From IMG/VR virus record IMGVR_UViG_3300002131_000090, positions 64,001 through 128,000 of that record: a DNA stretch of 64,000 nucleotides; one strand, written 5' to 3'. Below the pieces are notes generated by a model that did not search any database, was not told the origin of the DNA, and was given only the letters and a program-made list of their open reading frames with translations. This DNA comes from a virus. The translations under genes were made by a program, and so were the position numbers. Of this stretch, positions 1,536-31,621 are shown one piece after another (position 1 is the first letter of the stretch; every line of letters begins with the position of its first letter).

Positions 1536-2516
1536 ATGGATATTGATGAAATAATTGAACTATGTATATTGTATCAAAAAACAAATCATGGTGGAAGGAC
1601 AAGTAGTTATGACAAATGCAGAAGAGATCTAAAACATATTTTAGAAGCTGTTCAAAAAGACATACAGCACAACTCGACTGATTTTATTACAGGAATTGCA
1701 AATTATTTTTGGCAAAATCAAAAACGTATGGTGTTGCGTTATAAAGTCGAACTTGACATTTACCGTTACATGTTAACGTTGCTAAAATCAAAATTTACGG
1801 CAGCAGATTTTAAAAAAGCAGATGCTAGTATTGGTGTACTTTGCGAAATCGTAGAGCACGGCCCGAGGTTAAAATCAAAACAGCTACATACAAGACTCCA
1901 AGATGCTGCAAATCATGCTAATATTTGTCAACGAAACTGGGACTATTCAATAGAAATTCCAGAGAACGACATTAGTGCATTAGTTAATGTTGCTAAACAT
2001 ATGCCAACAAAACAAAACTTAGAATGTTATCAGTTAGTTGTTTCTAACAATAGAGAGTTTAATAAATATTTTTATGAACTATCGTACGACGGAATTAATG
2101 ATAATAATAAATGGCGTAATGGCCAAGTTAATGCACCGTTACTTTTTTTGTGGGTTTGGCCTAATGGAACATGGGAAAGAACTCATGAGATACAAAAAGA
2201 TTTTAATACTGCATGTGGCATTTCATCAGGTGCAGTAGCATTGTCTGCTAACATGTTAGGATATCGTACTGGATTTTGTAGATGTTTTCAAGGCGAAACT
2301 ATAACTAAAGAAATGAATAAATTACTCAATATTAATTCAGACGGAGTATTTCTTGCACTTGGAATCGGATATCCTAATACGAAATACCAAAGTAACGAAG
2401 TTGTTTACTACGAAGGAATATCTTATCTAGGTAGACCTAAACAAGTTAAAAAAGATAAAGGTATTGTAACAACTATTGCACGAGAAGTTAAAGATATAAA
2501 AGTATACAGAGTCTAA
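1536..2516 (+). CDS. Nitroreductase-fold flavoprotein with an additional N-terminal domain
   Basis: C-terminal half matches the nitroreductase pattern: QRNWDYSIEIPENDISALVNVAKHMPTKQN...ACGISSGAVALSANMLGYRTGFCRCF...LALGIGYP. Confidence 0.75.
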   Translation: MDIDEIIELCILYQKTNHGGRTSSYDKCRRDLKHILEAVQKDIQHNSTDFITGIANYFWQNQKRMVLRYKVELDIYRYMLTLLKSKFTAADFKKADASIGVLCEIVEHGPRLKSKQLHTRLQDAANHANICQRNWDYSIEIPENDISALVNVAKHMPTKQNLECYQLVVSNNREFNKYFYELSYDGINDNNKWRNGQVNAPLLFLWVWPNGTWERTHEIQKDFNTACGISSGAVALSANMLGYRTGFCRCFQGETITKEMNKLLNINSDGVFLALGIGYPNTKYQSNEVVYYEGISYLGRPKQVKKDKGIVTTIAREVKDIKVYRV

Positions 2517-3667
2517 ATTTTAAATTCTTCTACAATATCAAACAGACTTTCATCTCTACTTTTATCTAATGCATCAGTATAATCTAAAAATTTATTGTAT
2601 TTGTTACTCCAGTCTTCTGAAAACATATAATCAATAATGCCTTGTACTCTATCTAAATATACATAGGGCTGCAAACGTTGTTGTGCAAGTGTTTTTAAGT
2701 GTTCGGGCAAAACTTTAATATTAAGCTCGTCGGGATGATTTAAAATATTAAAATAAATTTTGTGTCCATATGGTATAGCCCAATCAATAAATTTATAAAG
2801 ATGCAATATATTATACATCTGTACTGTACAGTGTATTTCAATATTAGCATTTTCTAAAGTTCTAATTGTTTCAAAGTTTTCAACAATCTTGTTCCAGTTG
2901 CTAGGGTGTCTTATATATCTATCTAATGCACCAGTTGCGTCAATTGAACAGTTCAACTGGATTTGTTTAAACTTCTTCCATTTTTCTAAAAGATGTTTTG
3001 GAACATTTGTTAAGTTGGTGTTGTATTTTAGTTTGATATTACGAGCAGTTCCGTTTTCAATAAAGTAGTCTAACAGTCTATGCTGTTCTTTAATGATAGT
3101 AGGTTCGCCGCCTGTTAAATATATTTCTTCAACAGTGTTTGCAATACTAAACAAATTCTCCCAAGTTTTTTCAAGCTCGGGCCAATCCATACTACTTAAT
3201 CTTTTGTACTCACTTTCACTTAGCGCATCGTTAATTAAGTTCCATTCTTTAACCCACATGTTACTTGCATATGGATTACACATGCGACATTTTAGATTAC
3301 ACAAGTTTCCTAAGCGTAAGTCAACATATTTTATATCAAACGTTGCATCTGTTGTATACGTTTTATCTTCTTCCCACTTGTTGTTCCATGCTTGTCTTGC
3401 ACTTTTAATACCAACATCTTCTTCTTGAAAGCAGCGTTGACACATTTCAGGACGTTCGTTTGAAAGCATCTGTTTACGAATAGTAGTATAAACTTCACTG
3501 TTCCATGCATCTTCTAAATTATCTTTGTATAACTTATATGGAACGCCGGCGGTGTTGGTTATAAAGTTTTTTCCTGGAGTCGAGTTGCAACATACTCTTA
3601 AATTGCCACTAGCATTAGTTGCAAGATGCATCCAAGGTAAGACACAGAATGTTTTAGAAGTTGACAT
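2513..3667 (-). CDS. Radical SAM protein with N-terminal Twitch-like domain
   Basis: FCVLPW...RVCC...CQRC, then LGNLCNLKCRMCNPYASN, TGGEPT, YNTNLT, SIDA. Start moved from 3691 to ATG 3667 (MSTSKTFC), which fits paralog N-termini. Confidence 0.92.
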   Translation of the reverse strand: MSTSKTFCVLPWMHLATNASGNLRVCCNSTPGKNFITNTAGVPYKLYKDNLEDAWNSEVYTTIRKQMLSNERPEMCQRCFQEEDVGIKSARQAWNNKWEEDKTYTTDATFDIKYVDLRLGNLCNLKCRMCNPYASNMWVKEWNLINDALSESEYKRLSSMDWPELEKTWENLFSIANTVEEIYLTGGEPTIIKEQHRLLDYFIENGTARNIKLKYNTNLTNVPKHLLEKWKKFKQIQLNCSIDATGALDRYIRHPSNWNKIVENFETIRTLENANIEIHCTVQMYNILHLYKFIDWAIPYGHKIYFNILNHPDELNIKVLPEHLKTLAQQRLQPYVYLDRVQGIIDYMFSEDWSNKYNKFLDYTDALDKSRDESLFDIVEEFKI

Positions 3668-4727
3668 ATTGTTGTTTCCTAAGTGTATCACGCAACTGCG
3701 TTTGTTTTTTAAATGTAGCGTTTAGTTTATCGTCGTATTTATTTTCAAGTTCTAAAATGTCTTTTAGATATTCATTTAAGTTTGGATATTTATTATACTT
3801 ATTTTTTATTTTATCTCTATATTCGAGACGGTGTACCCACGGATGTAAATGAGTCGGTTCTTCGACAAATATTAGACTTATTTCCATTCCGCGATTTAGA
3901 AAATATTCTAGCGTTTCAGGAATATAAAACACATTATATGCACTTACAGTTACAAAAATCTTTAATTCAATGTCGCGTTCTAATATTAATTTGTTAAATC
4001 TATTCTCAAAGTTTTTCCATTTACCAGGCCAACGAATATATTCGTACAAGTCGCCTATTGCATCACAACTGATATATAATGTTTTCTTTTTAAATCTGTT
4101 AAGCACTTCTAACTTATCATCACTTATTAATAATGCATTAGTTATAAAAGAAATCTCTATATTTTCTGGGTTATGTAGTGATTTTAAAAATTTCATTATA
4201 TTAGGATTGGCAAACGGTTCTCCACCGGTAAATTTTAGATATTTTAAATTTTCTAATTTGCTAATTTTATCAAATGCAATGGTGACCCAGTCTTCATTGT
4301 AATGTTGGTTAGCAGTCCATAGGTCAGTGTCAGTCCATTCTAGTGCATTTTTTAAAACTTCTTGTTTTAATACAGAACTACTATGCGGTTCGCACATTCT
4401 GCAACCGAGATTACACAAATTACCTAATTTTAAATCAATACTTACAAGCTCGTACGGTTGTTTGTACATTTTTAAAGATTGTTCTCTAAGACTTTCAATA
4501 CCAACGGCTTCTTTTTTCCAGCATATATTACACTCTTTTGGTTTTTTATTATCCAGTAGTTGTGATTTTATATATGTTATTTTATCTGCCTTGGTTTGCC
4601 AACTATCTTGCCAGGAGACTGTTTTTTCATTTTGTTCCCACTTGAATTCGCAACACGGACGATAGTATCCATCCGTTGTACTTGCTGCTTGAGTCCAAGG
4701 TAGAGGACAAAAGGTTTTAGATTCCAT
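3654..4727 (-). CDS. Radical SAM protein with N-terminal Twitch-like domain
   Basis: FCPLPW...RPCC...CNIC; LGNLCNLGCRMCEPHSSS; TGGEPF; YIRWPGKW. Confidence 0.92.
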   Translation of the reverse strand: MESKTFCPLPWTQAASTTDGYYRPCCEFKWEQNEKTVSWQDSWQTKADKITYIKSQLLDNKKPKECNICWKKEAVGIESLREQSLKMYKQPYELVSIDLKLGNLCNLGCRMCEPHSSSVLKQEVLKNALEWTDTDLWTANQHYNEDWVTIAFDKISKLENLKYLKFTGGEPFANPNIMKFLKSLHNPENIEISFITNALLISDDKLEVLNRFKKKTLYISCDAIGDLYEYIRWPGKWKNFENRFNKLILERDIELKIFVTVSAYNVFYIPETLEYFLNRGMEISLIFVEEPTHLHPWVHRLEYRDKIKNKYNKYPNLNEYLKDILELENKYDDKLNATFKKQTQLRDTLRKQQYVNF

Positions 4728-5930: not shown

Positions 5931-6856
5931 CCTAGCTTTTCTTTCATTTTTTGATAAAACACGCCGTTTCTTGAATCTAATAACGGAGTTCTAATATTAA
6001 TTCTATTTGTAGTTTTATCTCTATGGAACTCGTTCCATTCAAAGTCTCCTTGTGCAACATGTATAGTATGAGATGGGGTCAATCCAAAGTAATCACATAC
6101 TGTTGCTTGATGTTCTTTATATATGTTTGCACAATTATCTGGTGAAAATTCTTTCATTAATAGCAATCCTGCAAATATGTTAGTATGTATTCCGTGTCGC
6201 CATTCGTACTGTAGTGCTAACGGACCATGATTCCACTTACTAAAACATATTCCAGATCTCCATTGCCCAGTTTGCAATCCTTTTGTTGTACTAAATGTAA
6301 CTACCTTGATACAATCATGATCTAAAGACCAACTAAGATCGTAACATGTTCCAAACCATGCACAGTCAATTAAAACTGGAATATTTAACTTATTACAAGT
6401 TTCCATAATTTCTTCATATAGTGGATGTACTTCGCCTGTACCACTAAATGGTATACTAAGAATAACTGCATCGCCGAATTCTAACGGTCTGTCGTCAATA
6501 AAGTCATCCCAATTCCATGCATATGCATCTCTATTGTAAGGGTATTCACCTCTTAACATTCTCGGTGTCCAGTTATTTCTTGCACATTCGTAATGGAACC
6601 AATCTAAAGTTTGTGTTGCTCCTAGACTTACATATCGATGCGGAAAAGTTTCTAATCCAGTAATCTTAACAGTTTCTGAAGATTCTATCCATTTAGGATA
6701 AAATTCTAAAAATTCATCTTGTACATCGTAGTCGCCATTAAACCATCCGTTTTCCTTTATGTAGTTAGATAAAAATTTTGTACATTCGGAAACTTTAGCA
6801 GAGTTGCCAGTTTTTCCTAAATAGTCTCCATACAAGGATTCAAACTTTTTACTCAT
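5927..6856 (-). CDS. PLP-dependent enzyme, fold type I (aminotransferase-like)
   Basis: GATQTLD, SIPFSGTG, PVLIDCAW (PLP Asp), FSTTKGL...WRSG (Schiff-base Lys). Start moved to ATG 6856 (MSKKF). Confidence 0.8.
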   Translation of the reverse strand: MSKKFESLYGDYLGKTGNSAKVSECTKFLSNYIKENGWFNGDYDVQDEFLEFYPKWIESSETVKITGLETFPHRYVSLGATQTLDWFHYECARNNWTPRMLRGEYPYNRDAYAWNWDDFIDDRPLEFGDAVILSIPFSGTGEVHPLYEEIMETCNKLNIPVLIDCAWFGTCYDLSWSLDHDCIKVVTFSTTKGLQTGQWRSGICFSKWNHGPLALQYEWRHGIHTNIFAGLLLMKEFSPDNCANIYKEHQATVCDYFGLTPSHTIHVAQGDFEWNEFHRDKTTNRINIRTPLLDSRNGVFYQKMKEKLG

Positions 6857-8174
6857 TCCAATATTTCCTATAATTTGGCACAATTTTTAGAAAATCTGTT
6901 TTTCTAATCTTGTCTAATGCATTCATGTAATTCTTAAACATGTTAAATAAGTATGGCTGGTTCTCTGAATCGCCTTCTTTAATAGTTTTAAGTAAAGTTT
7001 TTCTAAACTTGTATATACCTGCAGAATATGTATATGTACTCCCATCATAGGGATAAGGCATTTCATCGTCGATATCTTTTATCATATCGTATGCAGTTTG
7101 TTTCATTTCTTTAGTTAACACTTCGAGACTCAGATATTTTGGTGTTACTACTGTATTTGAAAATGTTATAGTAGCAGTATCTTTGTATTGTTGGAACCAG
7201 TTCCATGTTTGTGCAATATTAAATATATTTGGTGCCATTGTTGTATAAGCTATACACAATTCTATGTTATCAAAAGAAATAAAGTACTGAATCATTTTGT
7301 CTAAGTGATCTTGGTCATAATGTAGGCCGCCTCGACATAGTTGATACAGTTCTCCTATACCTTCAATACTAAGATAGAGTACAATCTTTTTAAATTTTGT
7401 AAGAAGTTCAAAAAATTCAGGATTTATAATTGTTGCATTAGTTGAAATGTCTAAGGTAATACGATCATTCCATCCAAATTCAATTAGCTTTTCTAATATC
7501 TTAATATTTTTATCTTCGTAAAACGGTTCGCCGCCTCTAAATGCAACAAACTGGAGATTTTTAAAATAATCCTTGTTAGAAAATAAGTTTTCTATAACTG
7601 CATCATCAATACTATAATATCCATAAGGATTTTGTTCATTTCTAAAAACTTCGCTGTGTTTCTTTTTTAACTTTTTTTCATCAGGTATCCACGCAGTGCT
7701 TACGTCTCCGTTGCAATGAATACATTTTAAATTACATTTATTTGAAGTGTTAATATCTAAATATATAAAGTCTGGTTTATCAAAGTTTTCAACCTTTGGT
7801 CTACGAATAGGATTATTAAGATTAGGATCACCACGTGTATCAGGGTAGTAGTACTTTTCTTCTAATGTATCTTGTGGTATTCTTGTAGTAAAAAATGTTT
7901 CAAAAAACTTACGTCTACTATGTCCTGCAAACTGTTCTTTTTTAACACAGTTTGAACAACCAATATTATCAGAAAAGTTAATGTGATCTTTTCTTAGGTT
8001 AGACCAGACTTCTCCGTCCCACATTTCGGATAGTGAAGATGTATTAAGATTTCCGAAGTACGGATCTCTAAATATACCGTCTGGCGCTACATTACCAAAA
8101 CTATCGATGCTTAATGCCTTCCACGGTGCAATACATAATGGCTTTGGTATAAGACCTTTCCATTTACTATCCAA
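6849..8174 (-). CDS. Radical SAM protein with N-terminal Twitch-like domain (CC motif replaced by PDG)
   Basis: LCIAPW...VAPDG...CSNC; SNKCNLKCIHCNGDVST; RGGEPF; ISTNAT. Confidence 0.9.
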   Translation of the reverse strand: MDSKWKGLIPKPLCIAPWKALSIDSFGNVAPDGIFRDPYFGNLNTSSLSEMWDGEVWSNLRKDHINFSDNIGCSNCVKKEQFAGHSRRKFFETFFTTRIPQDTLEEKYYYPDTRGDPNLNNPIRRPKVENFDKPDFIYLDINTSNKCNLKCIHCNGDVSTAWIPDEKKLKKKHSEVFRNEQNPYGYYSIDDAVIENLFSNKDYFKNLQFVAFRGGEPFYEDKNIKILEKLIEFGWNDRITLDISTNATIINPEFFELLTKFKKIVLYLSIEGIGELYQLCRGGLHYDQDHLDKMIQYFISFDNIELCIAYTTMAPNIFNIAQTWNWFQQYKDTATITFSNTVVTPKYLSLEVLTKEMKQTAYDMIKDIDDEMPYPYDGSTYTYSAGIYKFRKTLLKTIKEGDSENQPYLFNMFKNYMNALDKIRKTDFLKIVPNYRKYWNE

Positions 8175-9240
8175 AGTAATCCTCCTTGGAACCTTCTCTA
8201 ACTAAGTCTTGGGTTACGCAATGTATACCACCGTCCCAGAAGTATTGATGTCTAAATTTCCAATAAATTGGTGTAATGCCGTGGTTTTCCATTCGACGAA
8301 ATGCGTCTTTATTAGTACCAGTACATATTACTGCTTCTTCTGATACACTTAAAACATTTACATCAAATACTGTTTCATCAACACAACCAATCCAATGTGA
8401 GAACCATTCTTCTATAAACCCTTTATAAAAACGTTGTTTACGTATTGATGTAAATTCTGTAGGAAGTTCTGTTTCGCTATCTACTTCAATAATATCCCAA
8501 TGTTTTAATTTTTCAGGGATCCATGATTTCTTCCATGTCATTAATACACCAGGTTTTAACAAGGCAATCTTACCATCGCAATGTCCGCCAACTTCAACTT
8601 GGTTAAATGTAAACTCTTCGCCTAATTCTCGTTTTAACCATTCCAAGCCTGCTGTAGTTCCTCTACCTTTTACTGTATCAACGTCACCCGGCAATGTATG
8701 AAACAAGTCCTTACCACATTTGATAATATTTGCAGCATGGAACAGTATTTGACTATTAGCTAGTGCTTCATAAGAAGTTTTTTTGTTTGGAACTTTTGCC
8801 ATTGGCATTGATAGCCAACGCATACCTCTATCATATAGTCCACGACTAATATCTTGATATGCTAAATTTTCAAACATTCTTCCCGAGTCGCCAGTGTAAT
8901 GCTCAACAATAGTTGATCCAAACACCCCTAGCACATCTCTGGGCATAAGTGGGTGATTAGGATATTCACATTGTAACCAAGGTAAGTCAATTGATTCAAT
9001 TTGAGAAAAGTTAAACAAATTGTTAGGTCTATGAACTTTAATACCCATTCCAGTTAACAATGTTACTAGGTTGTCAAGGTCTTCGGCAGTTTCTTCAAAT
9101 ACTCGTTTTAACAAATCACGGGCTTCTGGATCAGGGATGTTATCAAAGTTGTCAGGGCTAAATGCACTTCCGACAATAACTTCTTTTAAAGGCTGAAATT
9201 CTGTATATGTTGCAGGGCTATTCAATTTATTTCTCTCCAT
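8167..9240 (-). CDS. Amidinotransferase (glycine / inosamine-phosphate amidinotransferase family)
   Basis: EFQPLKEVIVG, MPRD, GHCDG, FDVNVL, GGIHCVTQD (catalytic Cys); pentein-fold motifs. Confidence 0.88.
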   Translation of the reverse strand: MERNKLNSPATYTEFQPLKEVIVGSAFSPDNFDNIPDPEARDLLKRVFEETAEDLDNLVTLLTGMGIKVHRPNNLFNFSQIESIDLPWLQCEYPNHPLMPRDVLGVFGSTIVEHYTGDSGRMFENLAYQDISRGLYDRGMRWLSMPMAKVPNKKTSYEALANSQILFHAANIIKCGKDLFHTLPGDVDTVKGRGTTAGLEWLKRELGEEFTFNQVEVGGHCDGKIALLKPGVLMTWKKSWIPEKLKHWDIIEVDSETELPTEFTSIRKQRFYKGFIEEWFSHWIGCVDETVFDVNVLSVSEEAVICTGTNKDAFRRMENHGITPIYWKFRHQYFWDGGIHCVTQDLVREGSKEDYFG

Positions 9241-10307
9241 CTGTAACCAAGTACGCTACTGTCTTGTTTTCTGTGCTTGTCTAGTATTTTAAAATAGTTA
9301 TAAACACTAGTAAGATTTTCTATATTTCCTGGTTTTTCTACTATGTTTTTAATTTTTCTTGCAGGTTGATAGGTTTCGCATAATTTGTAAAATATGTCTT
9401 TAGAATAACTATTGCAATGAGACGGATTCATAAACCCGGGCGTAATAGTAGTATTCATTAAATGATCAAGACTTTCTTCTTCGGCCCATCTGCACAAGTT
9501 AGGTAACGTATGTAAATTATAACACGAAACTGTAGTAAAGCAACTGATTTTTTTAGCTATTGTCTTGATTTCTTTAATATTTTTTTCTATCTTTGACCAT
9601 TTGCTAGGCCAGCGTATATATTCATTTATCTCTTTATAACCGTCAATACTTAAATCAACATTAACTTTAAAATTTGAAAGTTTCTCTGTTAGTTTTTTTG
9701 GCCAATTATTTGCATTAGTTGTTAAACGTATAGTAGCTTTACTATTGTTTTTTATCAATACGTCAAGAAAGTCAACAAGATAGTTAGAAACTGTTGGTTC
9801 TCCTCCAGTAAAACGTATTTCGTCTCTGTCGCTCATAAACTCAGCTACTTCGGATAATAATTTAGGATCGTCGTACCAATTGCTGTTGTTGCTGTTGCTG
9901 TTGAACAAGGATCTGTTGTTGATAAACTCGTGATCTGCTGTATTTTTTAATGTTCTAATTTCTAAATCAATTAAACTGCTATTAGTAGGACTACACATCA
10001 TACATGCAAGATTACATAAGTTACCAAACTTTACTTCTGCATCTCTTTTGTTAGAGTACTTGTTTATACCAGTGTAACGTAAACTTTCAACGTTGTTTTC
10101 TTCTTCAAATTTACAATCAGCACAGCCAGACGGCCATTCGTTATTATCTAACGTATCCTCTATGGTTTTTACCCATGCACTGTTTGTATATTGAGATATA
10201 TTATCAGTTACATTATATGAATTTCCAGTATTTCTCCAACTACAGCAAGGCCTTAAATCACCATTAACGTCCATACTTACATGATTTTTAAGCCAATTGC
10301 ATTTCAT
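9222..10307 (-). CDS. Radical SAM protein with N-terminal Twitch-like domain
   Basis: MKC...RPCC...CADC; FGNLCNLACMMCSPTNSS; TGGEPT; YIRWPSKW. Confidence 0.92.
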   Translation of the reverse strand: MKCNWLKNHVSMDVNGDLRPCCSWRNTGNSYNVTDNISQYTNSAWVKTIEDTLDNNEWPSGCADCKFEEENNVESLRYTGINKYSNKRDAEVKFGNLCNLACMMCSPTNSSLIDLEIRTLKNTADHEFINNRSLFNSNSNNSNWYDDPKLLSEVAEFMSDRDEIRFTGGEPTVSNYLVDFLDVLIKNNSKATIRLTTNANNWPKKLTEKLSNFKVNVDLSIDGYKEINEYIRWPSKWSKIEKNIKEIKTIAKKISCFTTVSCYNLHTLPNLCRWAEEESLDHLMNTTITPGFMNPSHCNSYSKDIFYKLCETYQPARKIKNIVEKPGNIENLTSVYNYFKILDKHRKQDSSVLGYRWREIN

Positions 10308-11515
10308 TAATACATCTCCACTGGTATAATTTTAGTTAAATCTTTTTTTGTAAACTTGTCTAAAGATTTCATTTTAATTAAAAATTCTTTCCAGAATTCA
10401 TTATTTGATTCTTCTGACAATATATGATCAATTATTCGTTTCTTTCCTTCGTTTGATAGTTGCATATTTTTAATCTTATCTATATATAAATCTTTTAAGT
10501 TTGCTGGCATATATGCTAAATTTAGATACTTAGGATATCTAACAAGATCTATGCTTTTTTGATTAAAGTTTTTAGTGTTTATATCGCTTGACATCCAGTT
10601 GGATAATTTATCAAAATGCCAAGTAGTTAATACATTTAAAACAGTATGTATTCCAAATATTAAGTTAGTATTATACAATAAGTTTAATGAATAATACCAT
10701 TCTATATTTTTTTCAATAGTTTTCCAATTACTAAGTGTTCTAGCATAATCATTAACTTCTCCGTAGCCGTCAATACTAAAAATTATATTAACTGTTCCAA
10801 TTTTTTTCCAAATTTCAATTACTTCCAACGGAGGACGTTTTGTAACGTTAGTATGATATATTATTTCTAAAGATTCTAAATTAGGATGTACTCGTTCGAG
10901 CTCTTTTAAAAATCCTACATGCTCTACAGACATCATAGGTTCGCCGCCAAGAATTTTTATTAATGTTAATTTTGATAAATCTATTTCTGTAAAATCGTAT
11001 TGATTCATGCTTATAACATTTGTCTTTGCTTTTCCATTAGCATTAATAGTTTCTCTTGGAACTATATGTTCGTCTCGTATGTTATCTACATAAAAAGTTT
11101 TATTATATAGATTTGCCCAACTAGAACTATCAACTATAGTACACATTCTACAAGCTAGATTGCAAAGATTACTAAAAACAATTTCTAAATACTCTAATTC
11201 AAATTTTTCAACATTAACTGTATTAGCAAACTGCTTATTAAATAGTTGACGCATACTTTCTTTACCGGCAGCTTCCTCGTTCCAACATTTAATGCATCCG
11301 GGAAGTTTTTCTCCATTTTGCATTTTTTGTTGTAGAAGTTTGATATAGTTTTCGTCTTTAATTGCCTCGTGCGGTGGTTGAAAGATGTTATACTCGTTAT
11401 TCTCGTCTTTTCCAATAAAGAATCTGCAACATGGAGTAACAATTGGACCGTCTGGATGAGTGCCTAGTGCAACGTGTTTCCACAATAAAGAACACGCATT
11501 TGGATGTAACGTCAA
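10307..11515 (-). CDS. Radical SAM protein with N-terminal Twitch-like domain
   Basis: ACSLLW...TPCC...CIKC; SNLCNLACRMCTIVDSS; LGGEPM; SIDG. Confidence 0.92.
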   Translation of the reverse strand: MTLHPNACSLLWKHVALGTHPDGPIVTPCCRFFIGKDENNEYNIFQPPHEAIKDENYIKLLQQKMQNGEKLPGCIKCWNEEAAGKESMRQLFNKQFANTVNVEKFELEYLEIVFSNLCNLACRMCTIVDSSSWANLYNKTFYVDNIRDEHIVPRETINANGKAKTNVISMNQYDFTEIDLSKLTLIKILGGEPMMSVEHVGFLKELERVHPNLESLEIIYHTNVTKRPPLEVIEIWKKIGTVNIIFSIDGYGEVNDYARTLSNWKTIEKNIEWYYSLNLLYNTNLIFGIHTVLNVLTTWHFDKLSNWMSSDINTKNFNQKSIDLVRYPKYLNLAYMPANLKDLYIDKIKNMQLSNEGKKRIIDHILSEESNNEFWKEFLIKMKSLDKFTKKDLTKIIPVEMY

Positions 11516-12915
11516 TTAAAAATTCCTTTCATTTCAGGAAATGTTTCAGCAAATGTAATTCCTCTTTGCTTATCGCACAACTCTAGAAATTCCTTCATCT
11601 CAGGTAAACGTACACTCCAGTCTTCTGATTCCATAAACTGTAACATACCCATTAACCTATCTACGCCGTAACTAGCAGCTCTCCATGTTTCAAAATCAAC
11701 CTTGCCTTTATGCCAGCTAGGAATTCCTTTTTCCCAATTAGCTTCCCACCACGGTATAAATTCTTCATACTTTTTACGGCATTCTTCTTTAAACCATTTA
11801 GGAAGTACTTTGACATTAAGATGTGGAGGATGGTAAACAAAGTGATAGTTTACCCCGCCTGCGCCAAAAGGCCACATATTAATTTTCTTAAAGCCTTGTT
11901 CTAATTTCCATTTAATAAGATCGGGTATGTAATATATGTTTAGTGCTTGTACTGCACATGCAATTGTGATTTCAGTATTGTTTGGAGTTTGCGTGTCTAG
12001 TATATGAAATACTTCTTCCATACGGTTCCATTTACTAGGATAACGAATGTAATCGTTCATTTGCTCAATGCTGTCTATTGAATAATGGAAACGTACTAAT
12101 TTAAAATGACTCCATAACTCGAATAAATCTTCTCTCCATTCAACACCGTTTGAGTTGTAACGTATTTCTAAGTCTTTTGCATAACCCATCTTAATGGCAT
12201 ATTCAAGTATTTCGTAATGTTCTTCAATAATAAGACTTTCACCGCCAGCAAAGTAAATTTGTTGCATACTGGGCATCTGTTCGTAAAATTGTTTCCAAAA
12301 TGTAGGATTTTGCTTATGCCAGTTGTAACTACTGCCGTTGTAACTGCCTTTGTTTTCCCATTGCATTGTTTCTTTAAGAGATTCATTTTTTACAGCAGGA
12401 AAGATTGATTTGTAATCTTTAATCCAACCGCTACTATCATGCGGTGAACACATTACACAAGCTAACTGACACTTTGTGCCAAAACGTAAATCAATGTATG
12501 CTAGTTGTGGCGGAACGCGGCCGTCTTCCTTTGTGTCTGCAAGTATTTTATCAACATCAACACGCTGACTCCAATATTCTGTTTCCCACATACGTTTACT
12601 ATTATGCCCTGCTGCTTCTTCTTTATAACATTTTATACAGCTAGGCGGCTTTTCTCCTGCAAGCATTTGCTTACGCACATTCCTCATATATGTGCTGTTC
12701 CATGCTGTTTCAAAGTCGCTAACATTTAAATTGCTAGGTTTACCATCTTCTGTTTTAAGAATACCAACTTGTCCTCCGTGTACTTTATCATTTGTTGCAC
12801 CAACACTGCTTGCATTAGCTGTACAACATACACGCATACTACCATCTGGGCGTGTACTTAGATGTACCCAAGGCAATAAGCAAAACGTATCAGATGGCAT
12901 CTTTTTATCAGTCAT
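11512..12915 (-). CDS. Radical SAM protein with N-terminal Twitch-like domain
   Basis: FCLLPW...RVCC...CIKC; GTKCQLACVMCSPHDSS; AGGES. Start taken as ATG 12915 (MTDKK, AGAAGG upstream); alternative ATG at 12999. Confidence 0.9.
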   Translation of the reverse strand: MTDKKMPSDTFCLLPWVHLSTRPDGSMRVCCTANASSVGATNDKVHGGQVGILKTEDGKPSNLNVSDFETAWNSTYMRNVRKQMLAGEKPPSCIKCYKEEAAGHNSKRMWETEYWSQRVDVDKILADTKEDGRVPPQLAYIDLRFGTKCQLACVMCSPHDSSGWIKDYKSIFPAVKNESLKETMQWENKGSYNGSSYNWHKQNPTFWKQFYEQMPSMQQIYFAGGESLIIEEHYEILEYAIKMGYAKDLEIRYNSNGVEWREDLFELWSHFKLVRFHYSIDSIEQMNDYIRYPSKWNRMEEVFHILDTQTPNNTEITIACAVQALNIYYIPDLIKWKLEQGFKKINMWPFGAGGVNYHFVYHPPHLNVKVLPKWFKEECRKKYEEFIPWWEANWEKGIPSWHKGKVDFETWRAASYGVDRLMGMLQFMESEDWSVRLPEMKEFLELCDKQRGITFAETFPEMKGIFN

Positions 12916-12988
12916 TTGTCGGCCTTCTATCTTTCTTTTCTTTAATTTTTTTCTCTTGTATGCTTGCTTTGTTGCAACTTTAAACAAC

Positions 12989-14354: not shown

Positions 14355-15086
14355 TCAAACTCGGTCCGAGTCTGACTTTCTGTAAATTACTTCAACCCAG
14401 TCAGTCCTTCCGTTTAGAGGATTTTTACTAATATGTGATATATCATATAGTTCAAAGTTATACGGTATAATAAGTTTTTCAAATTCTAAAAAACTAATAC
14501 GTGTTTCGTATAAATCGTATAAATTTAATTCGCTAACTATTATGTCAGTGTTATTTAAAATGGACGACGCACCTTCTAAAATTAAAAGTTCAGCGCCCTG
14601 TACATCCATTTTTAAAATATCGACCTTTGTAATATTTGAATCTTTTAAACAATTATCAAGCGTATCTACAGCAACCGTTTCAGTAGTATTATTAAAGAAA
14701 TTATGATGTCCTTCTTCGGGGCGATTGACTGCTATTGAATCAGTACTAAGTTTGTTAAGATTAAAAAAACTACTCAACATTATTTGATGATGATTAACAT
14801 TAAACTCACTAGTTCCTTGAAAATTTGATAATGCAATATTATATAATGTTACATCAGTATAGTGTTGTGTATTTTCTTTTAAATAATTAAACGACTGCAA
14901 TACAGGCTCAAAACTATGTATAATTGCCAAAGGCCATAGTGATTTAAAATAGTCAACACTTTGTCCTATATTTGCACCGGCATCAATAATAACAGGATTT
15001 TTAGTATGTACTAAACTTTTTAATAAATTACCTTTATTAAATTTTTCTTTAGAAATTTCACTACGAGTATGTTCCGGAGTATACAT
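14355..15086 (-). CDS. FkbM-family SAM-dependent methyltransferase
   Basis: IIDAGANIG, SFEP, DILKMDVQGAE. Confidence 0.92.
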   Translation of the reverse strand: MYTPEHTRSEISKEKFNKGNLLKSLVHTKNPVIIDAGANIGQSVDYFKSLWPLAIIHSFEPVLQSFNYLKENTQHYTDVTLYNIALSNFQGTSEFNVNHHQIMLSSFFNLNKLSTDSIAVNRPEEGHHNFFNNTTETVAVDTLDNCLKDSNITKVDILKMDVQGAELLILEGASSILNNTDIIVSELNLYDLYETRISFLEFEKLIIPYNFELYDISHISKNPLNGRTDWVEVIYRKSDSDRV

Positions 15087-18172: not shown

Positions 18173-18263
18173 TTCTCATAAACCTTGTGTACTTTTCTAG
18201 TTCTAGACTTCCTTTATATAATACATTAGTTAGAGGAGTTTGTCTACTAAAATCTTCAAGATT
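18159..18263. repeat. Diverged direct repeat, copy B (105 bp)
   Basis: 91/105 nt identical to 18958..19062 by manual alignment, no indels. Confidence 0.95.
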
Positions 18264-18266
18264 CAT
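18159..18266 (-). pseudogene. 35-aa mini-ORF: relic C-terminus of the methyltransferase at 18958..19803
   Basis: MNLEDFSRQTPLTNVLYKGSLELEKYTRFMRIGFK*, compared with DLNNFSRQTPLNNVLYEGSLELEKYTRFMRIGFK* in the parent. Its ATG overlaps the sulfotransferase TGA (ATGA). Confidence 0.8.
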
Positions 18267-21132: not shown

Positions 21133-22653
21133 TTATTTTCCAATGCTTTTATATACATTGTACAACTCAGGAAACGTATTTCTAAAAGATGTGTTTCTTC
21201 TAAAATCGTGTTGATCTAAATACTTTACAAAATTCAATTCGTTTGTCTTTACTTCTTCGGTTGAGATAGTACTTCTATCTAAGAATATTTTTAAATTGCG
21301 TTCTGCTTTTTCAATTTCAAAATCATAAAATCCAACAAAATTATCAGTGTCAATATTTTCTTTCATAAAGTCTATTGCGCTCTGAATGTACGTAGCATAC
21401 TCAACAGGCAGCACATGTATATTTTGCCACTCTGGTTTACGCATAATTGGAATATCAAACCATATGCGCTGACGAGGATGTATCTCATAATCGGGATGAG
21501 TATTGTAAGGATCTACAATAGGAATATGTTTTATACCTTGGTTTGATCTGCTGTATTGATTTCTAAGATTTAAAATATTTTGTAGATATTCTTTAAACTT
21601 TGGTATGCTTAATGCATTAAATGTATTAATAAATGTTACAGTTGTATTTGCAGTTTCATCTAGCACTCTTTGTACATTCTTTTGCATAAGATTGTAATTC
21701 AATCCTGTACGTATGTATTCTGCTTGTTCTCCAACACTGTCTACACTTACAAACAACGCAAAATTCTTTAATGCCATGTTTACATACCAGTTGTTTCCAG
21801 ACCCAGGATTAAATCGTTTCTTATCTTCCCATATCTGAATTTGTTCTAGTTTTTTAAGTTTTTCTATAAACTTATCCATAAGTTCCTCACGCGGAGGACA
21901 CATATTTGTAGTAACACTAAGTTCTAACCAAGTGTTTGGATTTTCGTAAATGTAATCTAATACTTTAAATGTGTTTACATCCATCAACGGTTCGCCGCCG
22001 GTAATTCTAAACACTTCTAATTTTGTGTACAAAGTAGGCCACCAACGCCAGAACGCATCAAGATAAGGATTGTCACTTTGTTTAGTTTTTAAAGGCATTA
22101 ACCCTTGTGCTTCTAATGCAGCAATATTGTTATGTCCGATTGTATTTCCGTATGTATCAAGAATCTTAAAATCGCCATATTGCTTTATTTCATCTTCCCA
22201 AGCTGTACTAAGATGAGGACTGCAATACATACATTTTAAATTACACGCTTGGTTAAAGTTGACTTCCATGTATCGAGGAATGATATTTCCTGTATCAAGT
22301 GCATCAATAATATCGCCGCGACTGTTTTGCGCCCAGTATTCTCCAGATCTATAAATTCTATCACTACGATTTTTGTTATCTTCAATCTTCCAACAATAAC
22401 TGCAACCGTCTGGTCTTACACCAGCAAGCATTTGTTTTCTTTCTGCTTTCTTTTGCTGTGTATTATGCAATGCACTTGGGTTTGTTTTAATTTCTGCTAA
22501 GTCTACTTTGTGCAACGGCGGATGATAACAACTATGTGTCATTCCATTAGTTAAGTGCATTGACACTTGACTCCATTTAGCATAACACATAGTTGGACTA
22601 ATTCTTTTTAATTGAGTTTCTGCAATATCTGCAGAATTTTTATAAATGCTCAC
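21133..22653 (-). CDS. Radical SAM protein with N-terminal Twitch-like domain (SCYHP subtype)
   Basis: MCYAKW...HSCYHP...CSYCW; CNLKCMYCSPHLST; TGGEPL. Confidence 0.92.
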   Translation of the reverse strand: MSIYKNSADIAETQLKRISPTMCYAKWSQVSMHLTNGMTHSCYHPPLHKVDLAEIKTNPSALHNTQQKKAERKQMLAGVRPDGCSYCWKIEDNKNRSDRIYRSGEYWAQNSRGDIIDALDTGNIIPRYMEVNFNQACNLKCMYCSPHLSTAWEDEIKQYGDFKILDTYGNTIGHNNIAALEAQGLMPLKTKQSDNPYLDAFWRWWPTLYTKLEVFRITGGEPLMDVNTFKVLDYIYENPNTWLELSVTTNMCPPREELMDKFIEKLKKLEQIQIWEDKKRFNPGSGNNWYVNMALKNFALFVSVDSVGEQAEYIRTGLNYNLMQKNVQRVLDETANTTVTFINTFNALSIPKFKEYLQNILNLRNQYSRSNQGIKHIPIVDPYNTHPDYEIHPRQRIWFDIPIMRKPEWQNIHVLPVEYATYIQSAIDFMKENIDTDNFVGFYDFEIEKAERNLKIFLDRSTISTEEVKTNELNFVKYLDQHDFRRNTSFRNTFPELYNVYKSIGK

Positions 22654-23877
22654 TTAGCTATACTCGCGTTCTAATTTATCGTGGTCAAATAATTTGTCGA
22701 CCCATAAAAAGTTATCTTTAAAAATTACATCATTGTGTTGTTGTATAAAGAGCTCGCGATTATGTTTTGTAATTACCGAAAGTCTAGTGTTTAAATTTGC
22801 AAATTTTAGCGGATTTAACATTGCTAATCTTTCAAACTCATTTGCAATTGCTTGTAGTCTTTTATCATCATCTTCTATTTCGTCATAGCTTTCATCAATT
22901 AACGGGCTAAATGTTTTATACCCTTGCTCTCTTAATTCTTTCATAAAATAAGGAGTTGTAAAGGCAATAAACGGTCTATTTGCTGACATTGCTTTCCACG
23001 TTTTCTCTGTAGGAAATGATGGAGCAAACTCTTGTATCGGTATTGACTGACGTAGTCCTTTGTATGTCCAAAAAGGATCATAATGTGATTCAATTAAAAG
23101 GTGAATATTTCCGGACTGTATAAGGTTATAAGTTTGCATATCCATTTTGTTAGTAATACAATTTTCAGCTTTTACATCATTCACAAAGTAATCACTCATT
23201 GTATAAGGAATGTTACCTATCCATTTTTTTATCTTTTTAGAGTTACTATCATATCCTAGATCAGCTGCATCTTGAAGCATTTGTTCTTCTGATATAATTT
23301 TTAAACCGCCATATGGCAAGATATTGTTGAACGTATAATTAAACTGACTCACTATACTTCTATTAACTAATTCTAAATATATGTTAGTTCTATACAAATT
23401 GTAATTTCTTGATAGTGCAGTAAATCGATGCTTAGGTTTAATATTATCATCAATTATTGCTGTTCGTTTTAACAATAACGAAAATGCTTGTATATTTGGA
23501 ATATTAGGCATTCTTTCTAAGAACTTTTTTTCAGCCCAAGTTTTCCAAAATTCATTTAAAACTACTATGTATACTTGCTTTGGATTTATTTTTTGAGCTA
23601 ATATTGTACGAGCCCAATCAGTTAATTCACTCAAACTAAAATATTCATCGCCAAAGAACAATAGGATTTTTGCAGTTGAATCTGTTTTAATATGATCCCA
23701 ATGCGTGTCGTCAATAAAATTATTAAAAGATTGATTGTACAATACTCTGTCGTGCTGGTCGTACCAATAAACGGCATCTTTTTCATATGTTGCGTGATCA
23801 AGATGCTTCATGTTTTCATGTTTAAAGAGATGATGAAGCCCGGGCTTTTTTTCAAGTATTCTACTATATATTATCAT
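22654..23877 (-). CDS. Putative glycosyltransferase (TEKT motif, GT10/GT-B-like C-terminus)
   Basis: LLIES...PTEKTWKAM..NRPFI...GYKTF...IDESYD resembles the E-x(n)-TEK...P-I motif of alpha-1,3-fucosyltransferase-like proteins; start moved to ATG 23877. Confidence 0.5.
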   Translation of the reverse strand: MIIYSRILEKKPGLHHLFKHENMKHLDHATYEKDAVYWYDQHDRVLYNQSFNNFIDDTHWDHIKTDSTAKILLFFGDEYFSLSELTDWARTILAQKINPKQVYIVVLNEFWKTWAEKKFLERMPNIPNIQAFSLLLKRTAIIDDNIKPKHRFTALSRNYNLYRTNIYLELVNRSIVSQFNYTFNNILPYGGLKIISEEQMLQDAADLGYDSNSKKIKKWIGNIPYTMSDYFVNDVKAENCITNKMDMQTYNLIQSGNIHLLIESHYDPFWTYKGLRQSIPIQEFAPSFPTEKTWKAMSANRPFIAFTTPYFMKELREQGYKTFSPLIDESYDEIEDDDKRLQAIANEFERLAMLNPLKFANLNTRLSVITKHNRELFIQQHNDVIFKDNFLWVDKLFDHDKLEREYS

Positions 23878-24584
23878 TATTTTTGATCTCTTTTGTCGTA
23901 CGGTTGGGTTGTTACAGGATCGACCCAATATAAACTTCTGTGCGGCATATCATCTGTTTTGTACTGAGAATCACTTGTATAATAAAATAATCTAAAAGTT
24001 GTACGTTGTAAGTCTTCCGGACAAGTCAACGGTTCTTTGTATCCGTGAAATCCTAATTTATGGTATTGCCAAATTACTGCTCTGTTGAATACACAATCAA
24101 TTGCGTTTACAAGATTGTTATTTTTAAAATCATAAAATCCTAGTGCGCCTCCCCAATCAGGATTCCATTCTGGAGTAAGATAAACAATAAACGATAATGC
24201 TCTGTGTAATTTTAATTTTTCATTCCAGTTAAAGTCAGTGTGAACTTTTAGAGAATCATTTTTAAAACTTTTGCTGTAACCTGCACCTGTTAAATACGGA
24301 TCCGGAATCAAGCTACCAATACCGGTTAGTTCTTCTAACCATAATAGCATTTTAGGACTATGCATATACTCTACAAACTTTGATGCAATTGGTAGTACTG
24401 TTAAGTCTTTACATTCCTTCATATAACTTTTATTTCTAGTAAATTCAGACCAGTGAGTATCATCAACTGTACGAGTTTCGTTGTACATACTTTTAGCAAA
24501 ATCTATATCTAAAAAGTTATCTACACAAGCTGTTGGTACAGGGTCGTTAAATTTTGTTATATTTAAATTATTTGATAAACTCAT
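23877..24584 (-). CDS. 2OG-Fe(II) oxygenase (prolyl-hydroxylase-like)
   Basis: LKVHTDFN, IVYLTPEW...WGGAL, FNRAVI, GFHG, RTTF. Confidence 0.88.
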   Translation of the reverse strand: MSLSNNLNITKFNDPVPTACVDNFLDIDFAKSMYNETRTVDDTHWSEFTRNKSYMKECKDLTVLPIASKFVEYMHSPKMLLWLEELTGIGSLIPDPYLTGAGYSKSFKNDSLKVHTDFNWNEKLKLHRALSFIVYLTPEWNPDWGGALGFYDFKNNNLVNAIDCVFNRAVIWQYHKLGFHGYKEPLTCPEDLQRTTFRLFYYTSDSQYKTDDMPHRSLYWVDPVTTQPYDKRDQK

Positions 24585-24602: not shown

Positions 24603-24630
24603 ATTATAACAGCTAGATATTATTTGTCAA
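24603..24630 (-). promoter_or_regulatory. sigma70-type promoter with extended -10
   Basis: TTGACA (24630-24625), 16-nt spacer ending TGT, TATAAT (24608-24603); AAGGA RBS before ATG 24584. Confidence 0.75.
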
Positions 24631-27877: not shown

Positions 27878-28879
27878 TTAAATTAATCTTTCCTTCCAGG
27901 TTCTTGGAGTTTTAGAGTTTACTATTTCTAAAGGAAACGTATAATCAAACGGTTTGGTGCCGCGCTTTTTGATATAATCGATTGTACGTTCAACTGCTGT
28001 TTCTAAATCTGTTGTTGTTTTATAGTTTAATACTTGTCTTGCTTTGTCTGCACTACATGTTGCATGTTTAACTTCTTGTGGTCTGTCATCTACATGTATC
28101 GGTTGTAAGTTACAACCGGTTTTGTTAGCTATTAAATTTGCCAAATCTTTAACTGTAATTGTTCCTTCATCTGGTCCGATGTTTATTATTTGTCCTACAA
28201 TATCGTTGTCTAATATAAGTTTTTCAAGACACTGTATACAATCGTCTACATAACTAAAGCATCGTGTTTGTAAACCATCGCCATATATAATAGCAGGCTT
28301 ACCTTGTAAATTTCTGTTTATCATAATGCTCATTACGTTTCTAAACGGATCGTCATAGCGTTGTCTTGGCCCTACAATGTTGTGAGGTACTGCTATATTC
28401 CATTCCATTCCGTGCGTATCACTTAGCATACGCAATGTATCTTCGCCTGCTACTTTTGCAATGCCATATGGATCTACAGGCATAGGCTTCATATCTTCGG
28501 TAAACGGAGTTTGTTGATTTCCATAACGTGCCATACTAGAGCAATATACAAAGCGTCTTACTTTATTTTCTAATGCTGCACTAATTGTAGAGACTGTTGC
28601 TTGAAACACGTTTTTAGTAATAAAGTCGGGGCTTACTACACTTAGACCTTCGTGTGCTGTTGCAGCAGTATGTATTACAACATCGACATTTTTCATTATG
28701 TCTGCCATACGTTCTCTGTTGCAGCAATCTACTTTGTAAAGTGTTGCTTTATGATTTACGTTATCTTCATACCCACCAATTAAGGTATCATTACCTAATA
28801 CGTCGTGTCCTAAATTAATCATTCGATCGGCTAAATGGCTTCCTAGAAAGCCTGCTATACCTGTTATAAAAATTCGCAT
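27878..28879 (-). CDS. NAD-dependent nucleotide-sugar epimerase/dehydratase (extended SDR)
   Basis: [25 protein letters not shown] (YxxxK), [21 protein letters not shown]. Confidence 0.95.
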
Positions 28880-29568: not shown

Positions 29569-29577
29569 ATTGCGTTT

Positions 29578-30264
29578 TTAATGTATATCTAAAAATTCTT
29601 TTAACTGCGGATACATATAATTATTACAATATCTCATGTATGCTTCAAGTCTTGGGTGGTTGCCGTCTTTAAAAAACGGTAATTTATTTTTACGACACCA
29701 ATCAACAATAGGGTTGTTAAAGATGTTAACATTATGTTTAGATAAATGTTCTTCAAATATTATTTTTTGATCGGTTGTAATTACAGTATCCCAGCCATAC
29801 ACTACAAATGTATTAGGTGTCATCTTTTTAGCAGAGATTATGTAAAATAAAAGATCCTCAAGATGCTGTTCAACATCCATTAGATCTCCGCCGGTTTCTT
29901 TTTGAGAAAAATATGAATGAGATAAGAAATCAATTCTTTCTTTTTTATCAAAAATATTTATAGACTTTATAACAGTTGAAGCAAGAGCATTTTTATTTTC
30001 ATTTTTTTGCTGTTTAATAAAAAAAGGAGTCATTGGTTTTCTTAAATAACTACGTTCTGACCCAGTTATTTGCCATATAACTATATCGTTAGTAGTAATA
30101 GGAGTATTAAACATTAGTTCTTGAAATCGACGTTGCTGTAAACCATTGGAACTTGAAGATTGGGCAAGATTTATTAATGGAATTTTCATAGATTCCGAAA
30201 GACACCTTGCCCATCCCACGTGATGTGTAATACTGCAACCTAATGTTATTAATCTATCATACAT
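29578..30264 (-). CDS. SGNH/GDSL-like protein
   Basis: LGCSIT, INLAQSSSSN, DGNHP. Confidence 0.7.
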   Translation of the reverse strand: MYDRLITLGCSITHHVGWARCLSESMKIPLINLAQSSSSNGLQQRRFQELMFNTPITTNDIVIWQITGSERSYLRKPMTPFFIKQQKNENKNALASTVIKSINIFDKKERIDFLSHSYFSQKETGGDLMDVEQHLEDLLFYIISAKKMTPNTFVVYGWDTVITTDQKIIFEEHLSKHNVNIFNNPIVDWCRKNKLPFFKDGNHPRLEAYMRYCNNYMYPQLKEFLDIH

Positions 30265-31621
30265 AACTTTTGCATAAATTCCAAAATTCTGTCATTTCAG
30301 GAAATGTTTCTAATAAGTTTGTATTCCTTCTACGATCATATTCAGTAAACCAATTGTAAAAATCTTTTCTACCTTCGGTTATTTTATGGTCATCGTATTT
30401 TACAGTGGCAAAATAATTTCTTACTCTGCGAAATCTTTCATATTCTAGGTCACTAAACTTAGTTGTATCGTTGTCATCTTTGTTATCTTTGATAAATTGT
30501 AAGATGTTATCAAAGTAAGGAAGGAATTCTTCCTTAGGAAGTATGTGCATATCGTACTGCAAGGGTTCTTTAAGATAAGGAGTGTCAAATCTAATTCTAC
30601 GTCTCTTTGGATCGTGATACTGTTTTCTCCATTCAAGAACTTTTTCTAAAAAGTCAGTAAAACTAGTGACACTTAAAATGTTAAATGTACACATTACTGT
30701 CAGGTCGGCGCCAGTAATATCGAGGTAATTCTTCATATTACTTTCCCACAACTCTACGTTTAAACCAGTACGCAGGTATTCTGCACGTTTGCTGAATGTA
30801 TCTATACTGGTATACAATTTAAACTTGTTGATTGTATTCGTATCTAGAAGTTCTTTTACGTTGTTAGATAATTTTGTAACTAATCGCGGAGTTACTCCGA
30901 GGTTGCTGTTTAAGTTAAGTTCAAGATTAGGTCTTGGCTCTTCTCTGAGTCTATCAAACAAATTCCAAGTGCTTTTGTGCATAAGTGGCTCGCCGCCGGT
31001 AATGCGTAAAATGTTTAATGTTTTACTTAGCTCGGGCCACCATTCCCACCATGCTTTAATATAAGGATTGTCATCTTCGGGAATTGGAGTAAACCAATCT
31101 ACGTCAAGTGCGTGATTTTTTACAGTAGTATAAGGTCCAAACTTTTTAATTTCAGCATGAAAACTACTACTTGCCATTGGGTGACAATATCCACATTTGA
31201 AATTACATTCATTACTAAATGCAATTTCAACGTATTCAGGATTAACATTAAAATCCCAAGGGTTATCAAGAATTTCTTTTATACGTTCTGGCTTATAGAT
31301 ACTTTCATTACGAATCATTCTATCTGATATATGATCAGTACCTAGCGATTCGACATTCCAACAGTACTTACACCCTGCAGGCTTTTCTCCAATTAACATT
31401 TTTGCACGTTCTTTTTTCTTAATAAGCGTATTATGCAATGCACTTGGATTGTTTTTTATTTCAGCTAAATCAATTGCATGTGGAGCAGGATGATAACAAC
31501 TGTGCGTTTGCCCGGTATGCAAATATATTGTAGTATGATGCCACTTTGCCAAACAGAATGTTGGGCTTATTTCGTCCATTTCAAATGTACGATTTTTTAT
31601 GTTTTCTGTTTCAGATGTCAT
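30257..31621 (-). CDS. Radical SAM protein with N-terminal Twitch-like domain (SCYHP subtype)
   Basis: FCLAKW...HSCYHP...CKYCW; SNECNFKCGYCHPMASS; TGGEPL. Confidence 0.92.
   Translation of the reverse strand: MTSETENIKNRTFEMDEISPTFCLAKWHHTTIYLHTGQTHSCYHPAPHAIDLAEIKNNPSALHNTLIKKKERAKMLIGEKPAGCKYCWNVESLGTDHISDRMIRNESIYKPERIKEILDNPWDFNVNPEYVEIAFSNECNFKCGYCHPMASSSFHAEIKKFGPYTTVKNHALDVDWFTPIPEDDNPYIKAWWEWWPELSKTLNILRITGGEPLMHKSTWNLFDRLREEPRPNLELNLNSNLGVTPRLVTKLSNNVKELLDTNTINKFKLYTSIDTFSKRAEYLRTGLNVELWESNMKNYLDITGADLTVMCTFNILSVTSFTDFLEKVLEWRKQYHDPKRRRIRFDTPYLKEPLQYDMHILPKEEFLPYFDNILQFIKDNKDDNDTTKFSDLEYERFRRVRNYFATVKYDDHKITEGRKDFYNWFTEYDRRRNTNLLETFPEMTEFWNLCKSYV

Follow-up and report, generated by a model that had tools for sequence, protein, structure and literature searches.

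What does a phage do with nine paralogous radical S-adenosylmethionine (SAM) enzymes, each of which carries its cysteine-rich domain ahead of the catalytic core? The question is raised by the window analysed here, a 64,000-nucleotide stretch of DNA comprising bases 64001-128000 of the 146.6-kb IMG/VR virus record IMGVR_UViG_3300002131_000090 (CheckV completeness 41%), from an uncultured marine T4-like giant phage. The nine genes, named below by their first coordinate in the window, belong to a family that is catalogued as NF033640 (N_Twi_rSAM, NCBIfam) and uncharacterised. The explanation we favour is that they encode two-cluster radical SAM enzymes which would perform successive, non-redundant tailoring steps of one pathway, encoded behind the tail-fibre genes; as a whole, we give it a probability of roughly 0.6.

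The nine minus-strand open reading frames (ORFs) are intact at the coordinates given by an earlier note on this DNA, which had also pointed to an N-terminal-twitch radical SAM family. That family exists as NF033640. All nine proteins match it at 212-417 bits, above the curated cut-off of 170, and by these scores they are members; each match runs from model positions 1-5 to 386-398, the twitch part included, and none of 14 control genomes reached the cut-off. A Cys region ahead of the CxxxCxxC motif, as the note had described, was seen in every copy both in the alignment and in the family matches. The N-terminal domain spans residues ~3-106 and precedes the core in all nine, and in four of them Pfam places a SPASM/twitch match at residues ~14-88, ahead of Radical_SAM. 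In the nine-protein alignment (357-507 residues per copy) the invariant columns are the first Cys of the N-terminal domain, the CxxC, the CxxxCxxC, a GGE motif and a C-terminal Asp. Some of the finer motifs proved looser than first described: a strict C-x-x-P-W occurs in only four copies, the Ser of CxxxCxxCxP..S is found in all nine with the Pro in only seven, and the C-terminal Asp is likewise universal, with the complete D..R present in seven.

The Pfam SPASM matches cover the twitch-equivalent half only, and the SPASM signature CX2CX5CX3C, with its seven or eight Cys, is absent from all nine proteins, which have just four conserved ligand positions; a full SPASM domain was rejected on these grounds. 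Orthology with MoaA, viperin or anSME was also rejected, as the equivalog cut-offs were missed (for example, moaA 33.8 versus 284, and viperin_w_prok 25.7-32.8 versus 180). A tenth family copy lies outside the window, at 7474-8727 of the genome on the plus strand; it is of the CY type (SCYRG) and 43% identical to 12989. The window holds two further radical SAM genes, 352 and 16843, that do not have the N-terminal domain.

A profile of the N-terminal ~100 residues was built from 60 family members and compared against all PDB sequences. The sole significant match was the Twitch domain of BtrN (residues 164-237, E 1.6e-6), which was also obtained with the full-length family profile. Using the numbering of the 2513 protein, C16, C34, C84 and C87 align with BtrN C169, C187, C232 and C235, each of them a ligand of the auxiliary cluster, and C35 aligns with F188, a non-ligand residue in BtrN. 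The spacing C16-x12-G29-x4-C34 ... C84xxC87 agrees with the signature CX9-15GX4C ... CX2C. Because of the BtrN alignment and this spacing, the N-terminal domain is rightly called Twitch, with C16, C34, C84 and C87 as its predicted ligands. On profile evidence it is a true, homologous BtrN-type Twitch placed before the SAM-cleaving core, so that the reversed domain order proposed in the earlier note holds. The auxiliary [4Fe-4S] cluster of BtrN is held by four Cys, and clusters of this type are thought to be electron acceptors (PMC9012708). AlphaFold2 models of 2513 and 6849 (predicted local distance difference test (pLDDT) scores of 96.1 and 94.1) contain the same hairpin-plus-helices N-terminal domain.

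The ligand map bears directly on the further suggestion that the nine copies fall into three ligand variants with differently ligated clusters. The underlying residue assignments agree with our alignment: CC in 2513, 3654, 9222, 10307 and 11512, CY in 12989, 21133 and 30257, and APDG in 6849. Their interpretation survives for 6849 alone, where Cys is exchanged for Asp; CC and CY copies would have one and the same four-Cys ligand set, since of the two paired residues it is the first Cys that is the ligand, and the second aligns with BtrN Phe188. We examined how far each position is conserved among 178 full-length members of the family, drawn from 53 viral loci. Position C16 is Cys in 177 of these, C84 and C87 are Cys in all 178, and C34 is Cys in 174 and Asp in the other four, with no other residue observed. 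Position C35 is Cys in 151, the remainder having Y, H, M, T, W, G, Q or P. This variation follows the clades, the one with 21133 and 30257 having S-C-(Y/H)-H and the one with 12989 and the tenth copy T-C-(Y/W)-R. Judged from these alignments, there are two ligand sets (four Cys, or three Cys plus Asp) and, in the second shell, a position that varies by subfamily (C, Y, H or W).

The second Cys is clearly functional, because it is present in all 110 consensus-like representatives; we propose that it serves as a second-shell or catalytic residue and not as a ligand. By analogy, position 35 (Cys, Tyr, His or Trp) might act as a hydrogen-atom donor or redox relay. The single Cys of the sugar epimerase NeoN has a comparable role (PMC10991966), and so, reportedly, does that of the sugar epimerase HygY. 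The Asp of 6849 at the C34 position is invariant in 54 homologues of 32-96% identity, in which six Cys, and no more, are invariant and none compensates for the exchange. The protein is, as far as alignment can tell, the sole window copy in which a ligand is changed, and it defines a conserved 3-Cys+Asp subfamily. An Asp also stands for a Cys ligand in auxiliary cluster II of PqqE (Asp319; PMC5715301). For a 6849-type site the prediction is a 3-Cys+Asp cluster whose potential is altered or whose iron site is exchangeable.

The note had further described the paralogs as a diversified set, a claim that could be checked for redundancy and relaxed selection, and it is upheld. Pairwise identity among the nine copies is 20-35%, and in a tree of 93 representatives they spread over at least seven deep clades, each common to other phage contigs. 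The ratio of nonsynonymous to synonymous substitution rates (dN/dS) is 0.08-0.10 for 2513 and 0.03-0.07 for 11512, these values being rough as dS is saturated (>1.4). The clade of 12989 (support 98) contains members from two further loci (L015 and L052) and one Parcubacteria copy. That of 21133 (support 99) has eight rows, and 30257 is an old duplicate of 21133 (35% identity); two loci (L040 and L043) carry a separate 30257 orthologue adjoining their 21133 orthologue. A 1.27-Mb contig of a Parcubacteria metagenome-assembled genome (MAG; CAWFCE010000002.1, L054:7986-17088) has six tandem N_Twi_rSAM genes and three other radical SAM genes. The six copies scatter over the 11512 clade, the 12989 clade, the 6849 group and the 9222/10307 group, and this array is the cellular counterpart of the phage array. 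That tandem copies in a member of the candidate phyla radiation (CPR) scatter over the same clades points to an old co-travelling set and away from a local amplification. The Parcubacteria array adjoins genes for a family 1 glycosyltransferase (GT1), an AsnB-like amidotransferase, a Sua5/YrdC-like protein and a short-chain dehydrogenase/reductase.

Within the phage array, 11512 and 2513 form a conserved frame in that order, and the copies between them are swappable. The upstream anchor, 11512, falls in a cluster (90% identity) with 2014 members and has orthologues at 52-57% in Dojkabacteria and Parcubacteria MAGs; the downstream anchor, 2513, has 23 orthologues of at least 50% identity in other phage loci. 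In 16 related loci, the anchor orthologues are separated by 2.0-5.3 kb that hold one or two family genes; in the window the anchors enclose 7.8 kb, in which four family genes and four unknown genes are found. Exact proteins recur on 20-89 contigs each; those of 3654, 9222 and 10307 are found on 20-51 contigs of the phage population, the largest of 296.7 kb (51 contigs for 3654 and 44 for 9222). Family-wide, E<=1e-30 is reached by 10,131 clusters (50% identity). Proteins of 770-1400 residues that hold two or three complete N_Twi_rSAM units (P0280-P0309) are numerous in metagenomes, and a 716-residue member (P0199) resembles a fusion of 3654 and 2513; such multi-unit polypeptides may be real fusions or gene-calling read-through. 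The 507-residue frame of 11512 opens with TTG, and its cluster mates have 465-471 residues. Its true start is probably the ATG at 12915, giving 467 residues, so that it would no longer overlap the upstream gene, whose end is at 12989.

Table 1 Features of the window discussed in the text. N_Twi_rSAM copies are listed first, with their twitch residues in parentheses; other genes follow.
Feature	Coordinates	Strand	Profile match
N_Twi_rSAM, CC type (C16, C34-C35, C84xxC87; radical SAM motif C131/C135/C138)	2513..3691	-	NF033640 397 bits
N_Twi_rSAM, CC type (C7, C25-C26, C66xxC69), variable-cassette member	3654..4727	-	NF033640 251 bits
N_Twi_rSAM, Asp subfamily (C14, D32-G33, C73xxC76)	6849..8174	-	NF033640 235 bits
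N_Twi_rSAM, CC type (C3, C21-C22, C62xxC65), without PW motif, long branch	9222..10307	-	NF033640 215 bits
N_Twi_rSAM, CC type (C8, C29-C30, C74xxC77), D..T replacing D..R	10307..11515	-	NF033640 254 bits
N_Twi_rSAM, CC type (C52, C70-C71, C133xxC136 in 507-residue frame)	11512..13035	-	NF033640 417 bits
N_Twi_rSAM, C-Y type (C16, C34-Y35, C74xxC77), T-C-(Y/W)-R clade	12989..14308	-	NF033640 219 bits
N_Twi_rSAM, C-Y type (C23, C42-Y43, C84xxC87), S-C-(Y/H)-H clade	21133..22653	-	NF033640 301 bits
N_Twi_rSAM, C-Y type (C23, C42-Y43, C84xxC87)	30257..31621	-	NF033640 316 bits
Radical SAM without N-terminal twitch, in island, outside family	352..1464	-	PF04055 only; family hidden Markov model (HMM) matched at core only
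Radical SAM without N-terminal twitch	16843..17910	-	PF04055 weak; family HMM partial match
FkbM-family methyltransferase	14355..15086	-	PF05050 E 1.4e-18
2-oxoglutarate (2OG)-Fe(II) oxygenase	23877..24584	-	PF13640 E 1e-12
NAD-dependent nucleoside diphosphate (NDP)-sugar epimerase/dehydratase	27878..28879	-	PF01370 E 8.9e-48, PF16363 E 3.3e-39
Upstream virion genes: Peptidase_G2-like spike, tail-collar fibre protein, 4639-residue protein, baseplate gp25	37198..62559	-	

Taken together, stepwise radical tailoring by two-cluster, oxidoreductase-type enzymes is most likely, as judged from sequence. In such a scheme the CxxxCxxC cluster would cleave SAM to a 5'-deoxyadenosyl radical, which would take a hydrogen atom from the substrate, and the fully ligated N-terminal cluster would then accept or return an electron, giving an outcome of the dehydrogenation, epimerisation or cross-link type. 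Eight copies would share the four-Cys site and differ at the next residue, which is Cys, or Tyr in three of them. Successive, non-redundant radical steps of one tailoring pathway appear the most likely division of labour between the copies because ancient subfamilies travel together in phages and in CPR bacteria, in a conserved frame with swappable copies. A bolder version would see the N_Twi arrays as an undescribed multi-step radical pathway that decorates phage particles and CPR cell surfaces, with the residue after the ligand (Cys, Tyr, His or Trp) as the hydrogen-atom donor or redox relay that decides how each step ends, in the manner of the single Cys of NeoN and HygY, and with the Asp subfamily binding substrate through an exchangeable iron site; that all of these parts should hold jointly is rather unlikely.

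The genes sit in an enzyme island of ~35 kb within the window, directly behind the virion genes and in the same orientation. Nearly all window genes are on the minus strand, at a G+C content of 30-38%, and the island genes abut or overlap, the sole larger gap being one of 353 bp (17911-18262). The only plus-strand gene of the island, 1536-2516, belongs to the nitroreductase family (E 9.2e-6), which also occurs beside N_Twi genes in three other loci. Among the virion genes, the 4639-residue ORF (43141-57060) carries CBM5/12 and FG-GAP elements and lies between the baseplate gp25 and tail-collar fibre genes; its product is a giant fibre- or adhesin-like virion protein. In its placement the island corresponds to the host recognition cluster (HRC) of marine T4-like phages, where radical SAM cassettes reportedly distinguish relatives (PMC7029224).

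On what the enzymes act, and on the note's suggestion that each copy serves a different position or substrate, with NDP-sugars or glycopeptides as candidates, the gene context provides weak hints in two directions. A sugar substrate is suggested by the NDP-sugar epimerase/dehydratase, which is the clearest sugar-nucleotide enzyme in the island, and by the FkbM methyltransferase, the neighbours of the Parcubacteria array and the BtrN-like twitch. The predicted fold of 22654-23928 (424 residues) points the same way, as it matches a viral family fused to NDP-sugar epimerase/dehydratase (template-modelling (TM) score 0.81); a faint GT10-like feature match of this protein (0.79) is a lead only. A protein substrate is suggested by the position of the island behind the fibre genes, the recurrence of Asp/Asn beta-hydroxylases and the fact that no glycosyltransferase was detected. 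We take a sugar or sugar-nucleotide-like substrate as first choice, at about even odds and somewhat likelier than a virion protein, which is our tentative second choice. Three annotation labels were not relied on, the Pfam matches, sought at E values of up to 1, being sub-threshold: 'aminotransferase' for 5927-6883 (E 0.042), 'amidinotransferase/ADI' for 8167-9240 (E 0.16) and 'sulfotransferase' for 18263-18961 (E 0.12).

Several observations weigh against stepwise tailoring, or against a sugar as its substrate. As modelled, the core belongs to the SPASM/twitch/viperin branch of the superfamily, its structural neighbours being anSME (Z 13.6), BlsE (13.3), viperin (13.2), SkfB (12.8) and MoaA (12.1); peptide-modifying and sugar- or nucleotide-modifying enzymes are thus found within one Z unit, and the Foldseek and VIA structure matches, which cover the core only, do not discriminate function. 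We tallied 148 neighbours of N_Twi genes in 24 viral loci. Other radical SAMs (13) head the list, followed by Asp/Asn beta-hydroxylases (8), which act on proteins; fatty-acid desaturases and nitroreductases account for three each. No Pfam family could be assigned to about two thirds of the neighbours, which weakens the sugar reading, and a glycosyltransferase was detected neither in the window nor at the top of this tally. IMG/VR viral scans for 3654, 9222 and 10307 returned distant relatives and no close orthologue, and the evidence for selection is limited by the saturation of dS. A literature search found no paper on the NF033640 family. Formally, the second Cys could still be an alternative or extra ligand.

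The rival that survives best holds that the nine proteins are protein or peptide maturases, which put cross-links, epimerisations or other marks on virion proteins such as the tail fibres or the 4639-residue protein. Most SPASM/twitch radical SAM enzymes are protein or peptide maturases, and anSME, SkfB, EpeE, SuiB and CteB are among the best structural matches of the core. A place immediately after same-strand genes for the baseplate, the tail collar and a giant fibre-like protein fits such a role, as do the Asp/Asn beta-hydroxylases and 2OG oxygenases that recur among the neighbours and the lack of a detected glycosyltransferase noted above. However, neither a RiPP-recognition (ribosomally synthesised and post-translationally modified peptide) domain nor a PqqD-like domain was found in Pfam and NCBIfam scans, and the overlapping genes leave no room for a leader-peptide ORF save in the one 353-bp gap; a distant protein substrate is conceivable. 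Furthermore, the closest twitch is that of a cyclitol dehydrogenase, BtrN, and sugar-nucleotide enzymes are encoded both in the island and in the CPR locus. On balance we consider maturation of virion proteins unlikely.

A second rival concerns the N-terminal domain itself, which might hold a [2Fe-2S] cluster, as does the SkfB twitch, or zinc, and serve only as a structural or recognition module. There is a weak profile match to the SkfB twitch, and four Cys arranged as C...C...CxxC are also able to bind zinc. Set against this are the BtrN twitch as the only significant match of the domain, with four [4Fe-4S] ligands aligned, and the choice of Asp as the sole tolerated ligand replacement, which resembles the Fe-S site of PqqE and is unlike zinc sites; a purely structural module is, in our view, improbable. 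Slightly more improbable still are enzymes acting on nucleotides or DNA, whether by viperin- or MoaA-like nucleotide editing or by DNA hypermodification. Viperin and MoaA do figure among the best core matches, and genes for QueC, PTPS and phosphoribosyltransferase occur among the neighbours in related loci. Yet the viperin and MoaA equivalog scores are far under their cut-offs (25.7 versus 180 and 33.8 versus 284), the island is located in the tail-fibre region and outside any replication or DNA-modification region, and the substrate-binding cluster of MoaA leaves an iron site open, in contrast to the eight of nine sites here that appear fully Cys-ligated. That the copies are redundant or decaying duplicates from a recent tandem amplification, as their clustering on one strand and the lack of close IMG/VR orthologues for 3654, 9222 and 10307 might suggest, is already contradicted by their low pairwise identity, by catalytic motifs intact in all nine, by separate deep clades common to other phages and CPR bacteria, and by dN/dS far below 1 where measurable.

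Stepwise tailoring by two-cluster enzymes thus remains our preferred explanation, and the nine proteins can be set beside known systems accordingly. From NF033640 they show no difference in kind, sharing its architecture of N-terminal C...C(C)...CxxC, CxxxCxxC, GGE and C-terminal D..R; within it, 6849 has Asp at one ligand position and three window copies have Tyr after the ligand Cys. The closest characterised relative of the twitch is BtrN, a 2-deoxy-scyllo-inosamine dehydrogenase (PDB 4M7S/4M7T), with a homologous domain, four aligned auxiliary Cys and a fully Cys-ligated site, as a cluster that accepts electrons would be expected to have. In BtrN the twitch follows the core, whereas in the window copies it comes first; these also have a larger core and C-terminal helical region (357-507 residues overall versus 250-270 for BtrN), and outside the twitch the similarity is generic only. 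PqqE, whose auxiliary cluster II is held by three Cys and Asp319, offers a precedent for the conserved Asp ligand of the 6849 subfamily. It differs in having a C-terminal SPASM domain with two auxiliary clusters and a peptide substrate, and its Asp is in the second cluster, in contrast to the single twitch cluster here. In the enzymes that match the core barrel best (anSME, SkfB, BlsE, viperin and MoaA; Z 12-13.6), the auxiliary domains, where present, are C-terminal.

At the level of the locus, the frame-plus-cassette pattern fits the HRC of pelagimyophages and cyanomyophages (Zaragoza-Solas et al. 2020, PMC7029224). That paper stresses glycosyltransferases, which were undetected in the window, and does not define the family, its domain order or its ligands. 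What is new here is the residue-level ligand map onto BtrN, the alignment-based reading of CC versus CY as no ligand difference, the definition of a putative conserved Asp subfamily, a match, paralog for paralog, with a CPR array, and an outlier in a culturable phage, namely KVP40.0272 of Vibrio phage KVP40 (L059:5971-7023). In KVP40.0272, C13, C31-C32 and C68xxC71 precede CNLACRMC in the same architecture. Its full-length match to NF033640 has E 4.8e-39, and at the level of the fold it matches the 2513 model (TM 0.58-0.68). At 134.6 bits it is below the cut-off of 170 and is therefore an outlier and not a formal member. Unlike the window array, it is a single copy outside any tail-fibre island; a relative also occurs in ~40 related cultured vibriophages. 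The GenBank annotation of its neighbour in name, KVP40.0274, as GT1 was not reproduced by current Pfam. KVP40-type matches came only with the shorter 3654 query, and the cultured-phage matches to 11512 are distant only (Ralstonia phage RsoM2USA, Vibrio phages K566 and K567).

The family is abundant in phages of oceans and lakes and occurs in arrays in CPR bacteria. Because the genes lie beside the tail fibres of an abundant phage, their product may bear on host recognition. As a test set, the window copies are compact and well conserved and include three natural variants of the active site (C-C, C-Y and Asp for a ligand Cys), and the ligand map derived from BtrN can be used for mutagenesis, with KVP40 and its distant single-copy relative as a possible genetic test system.

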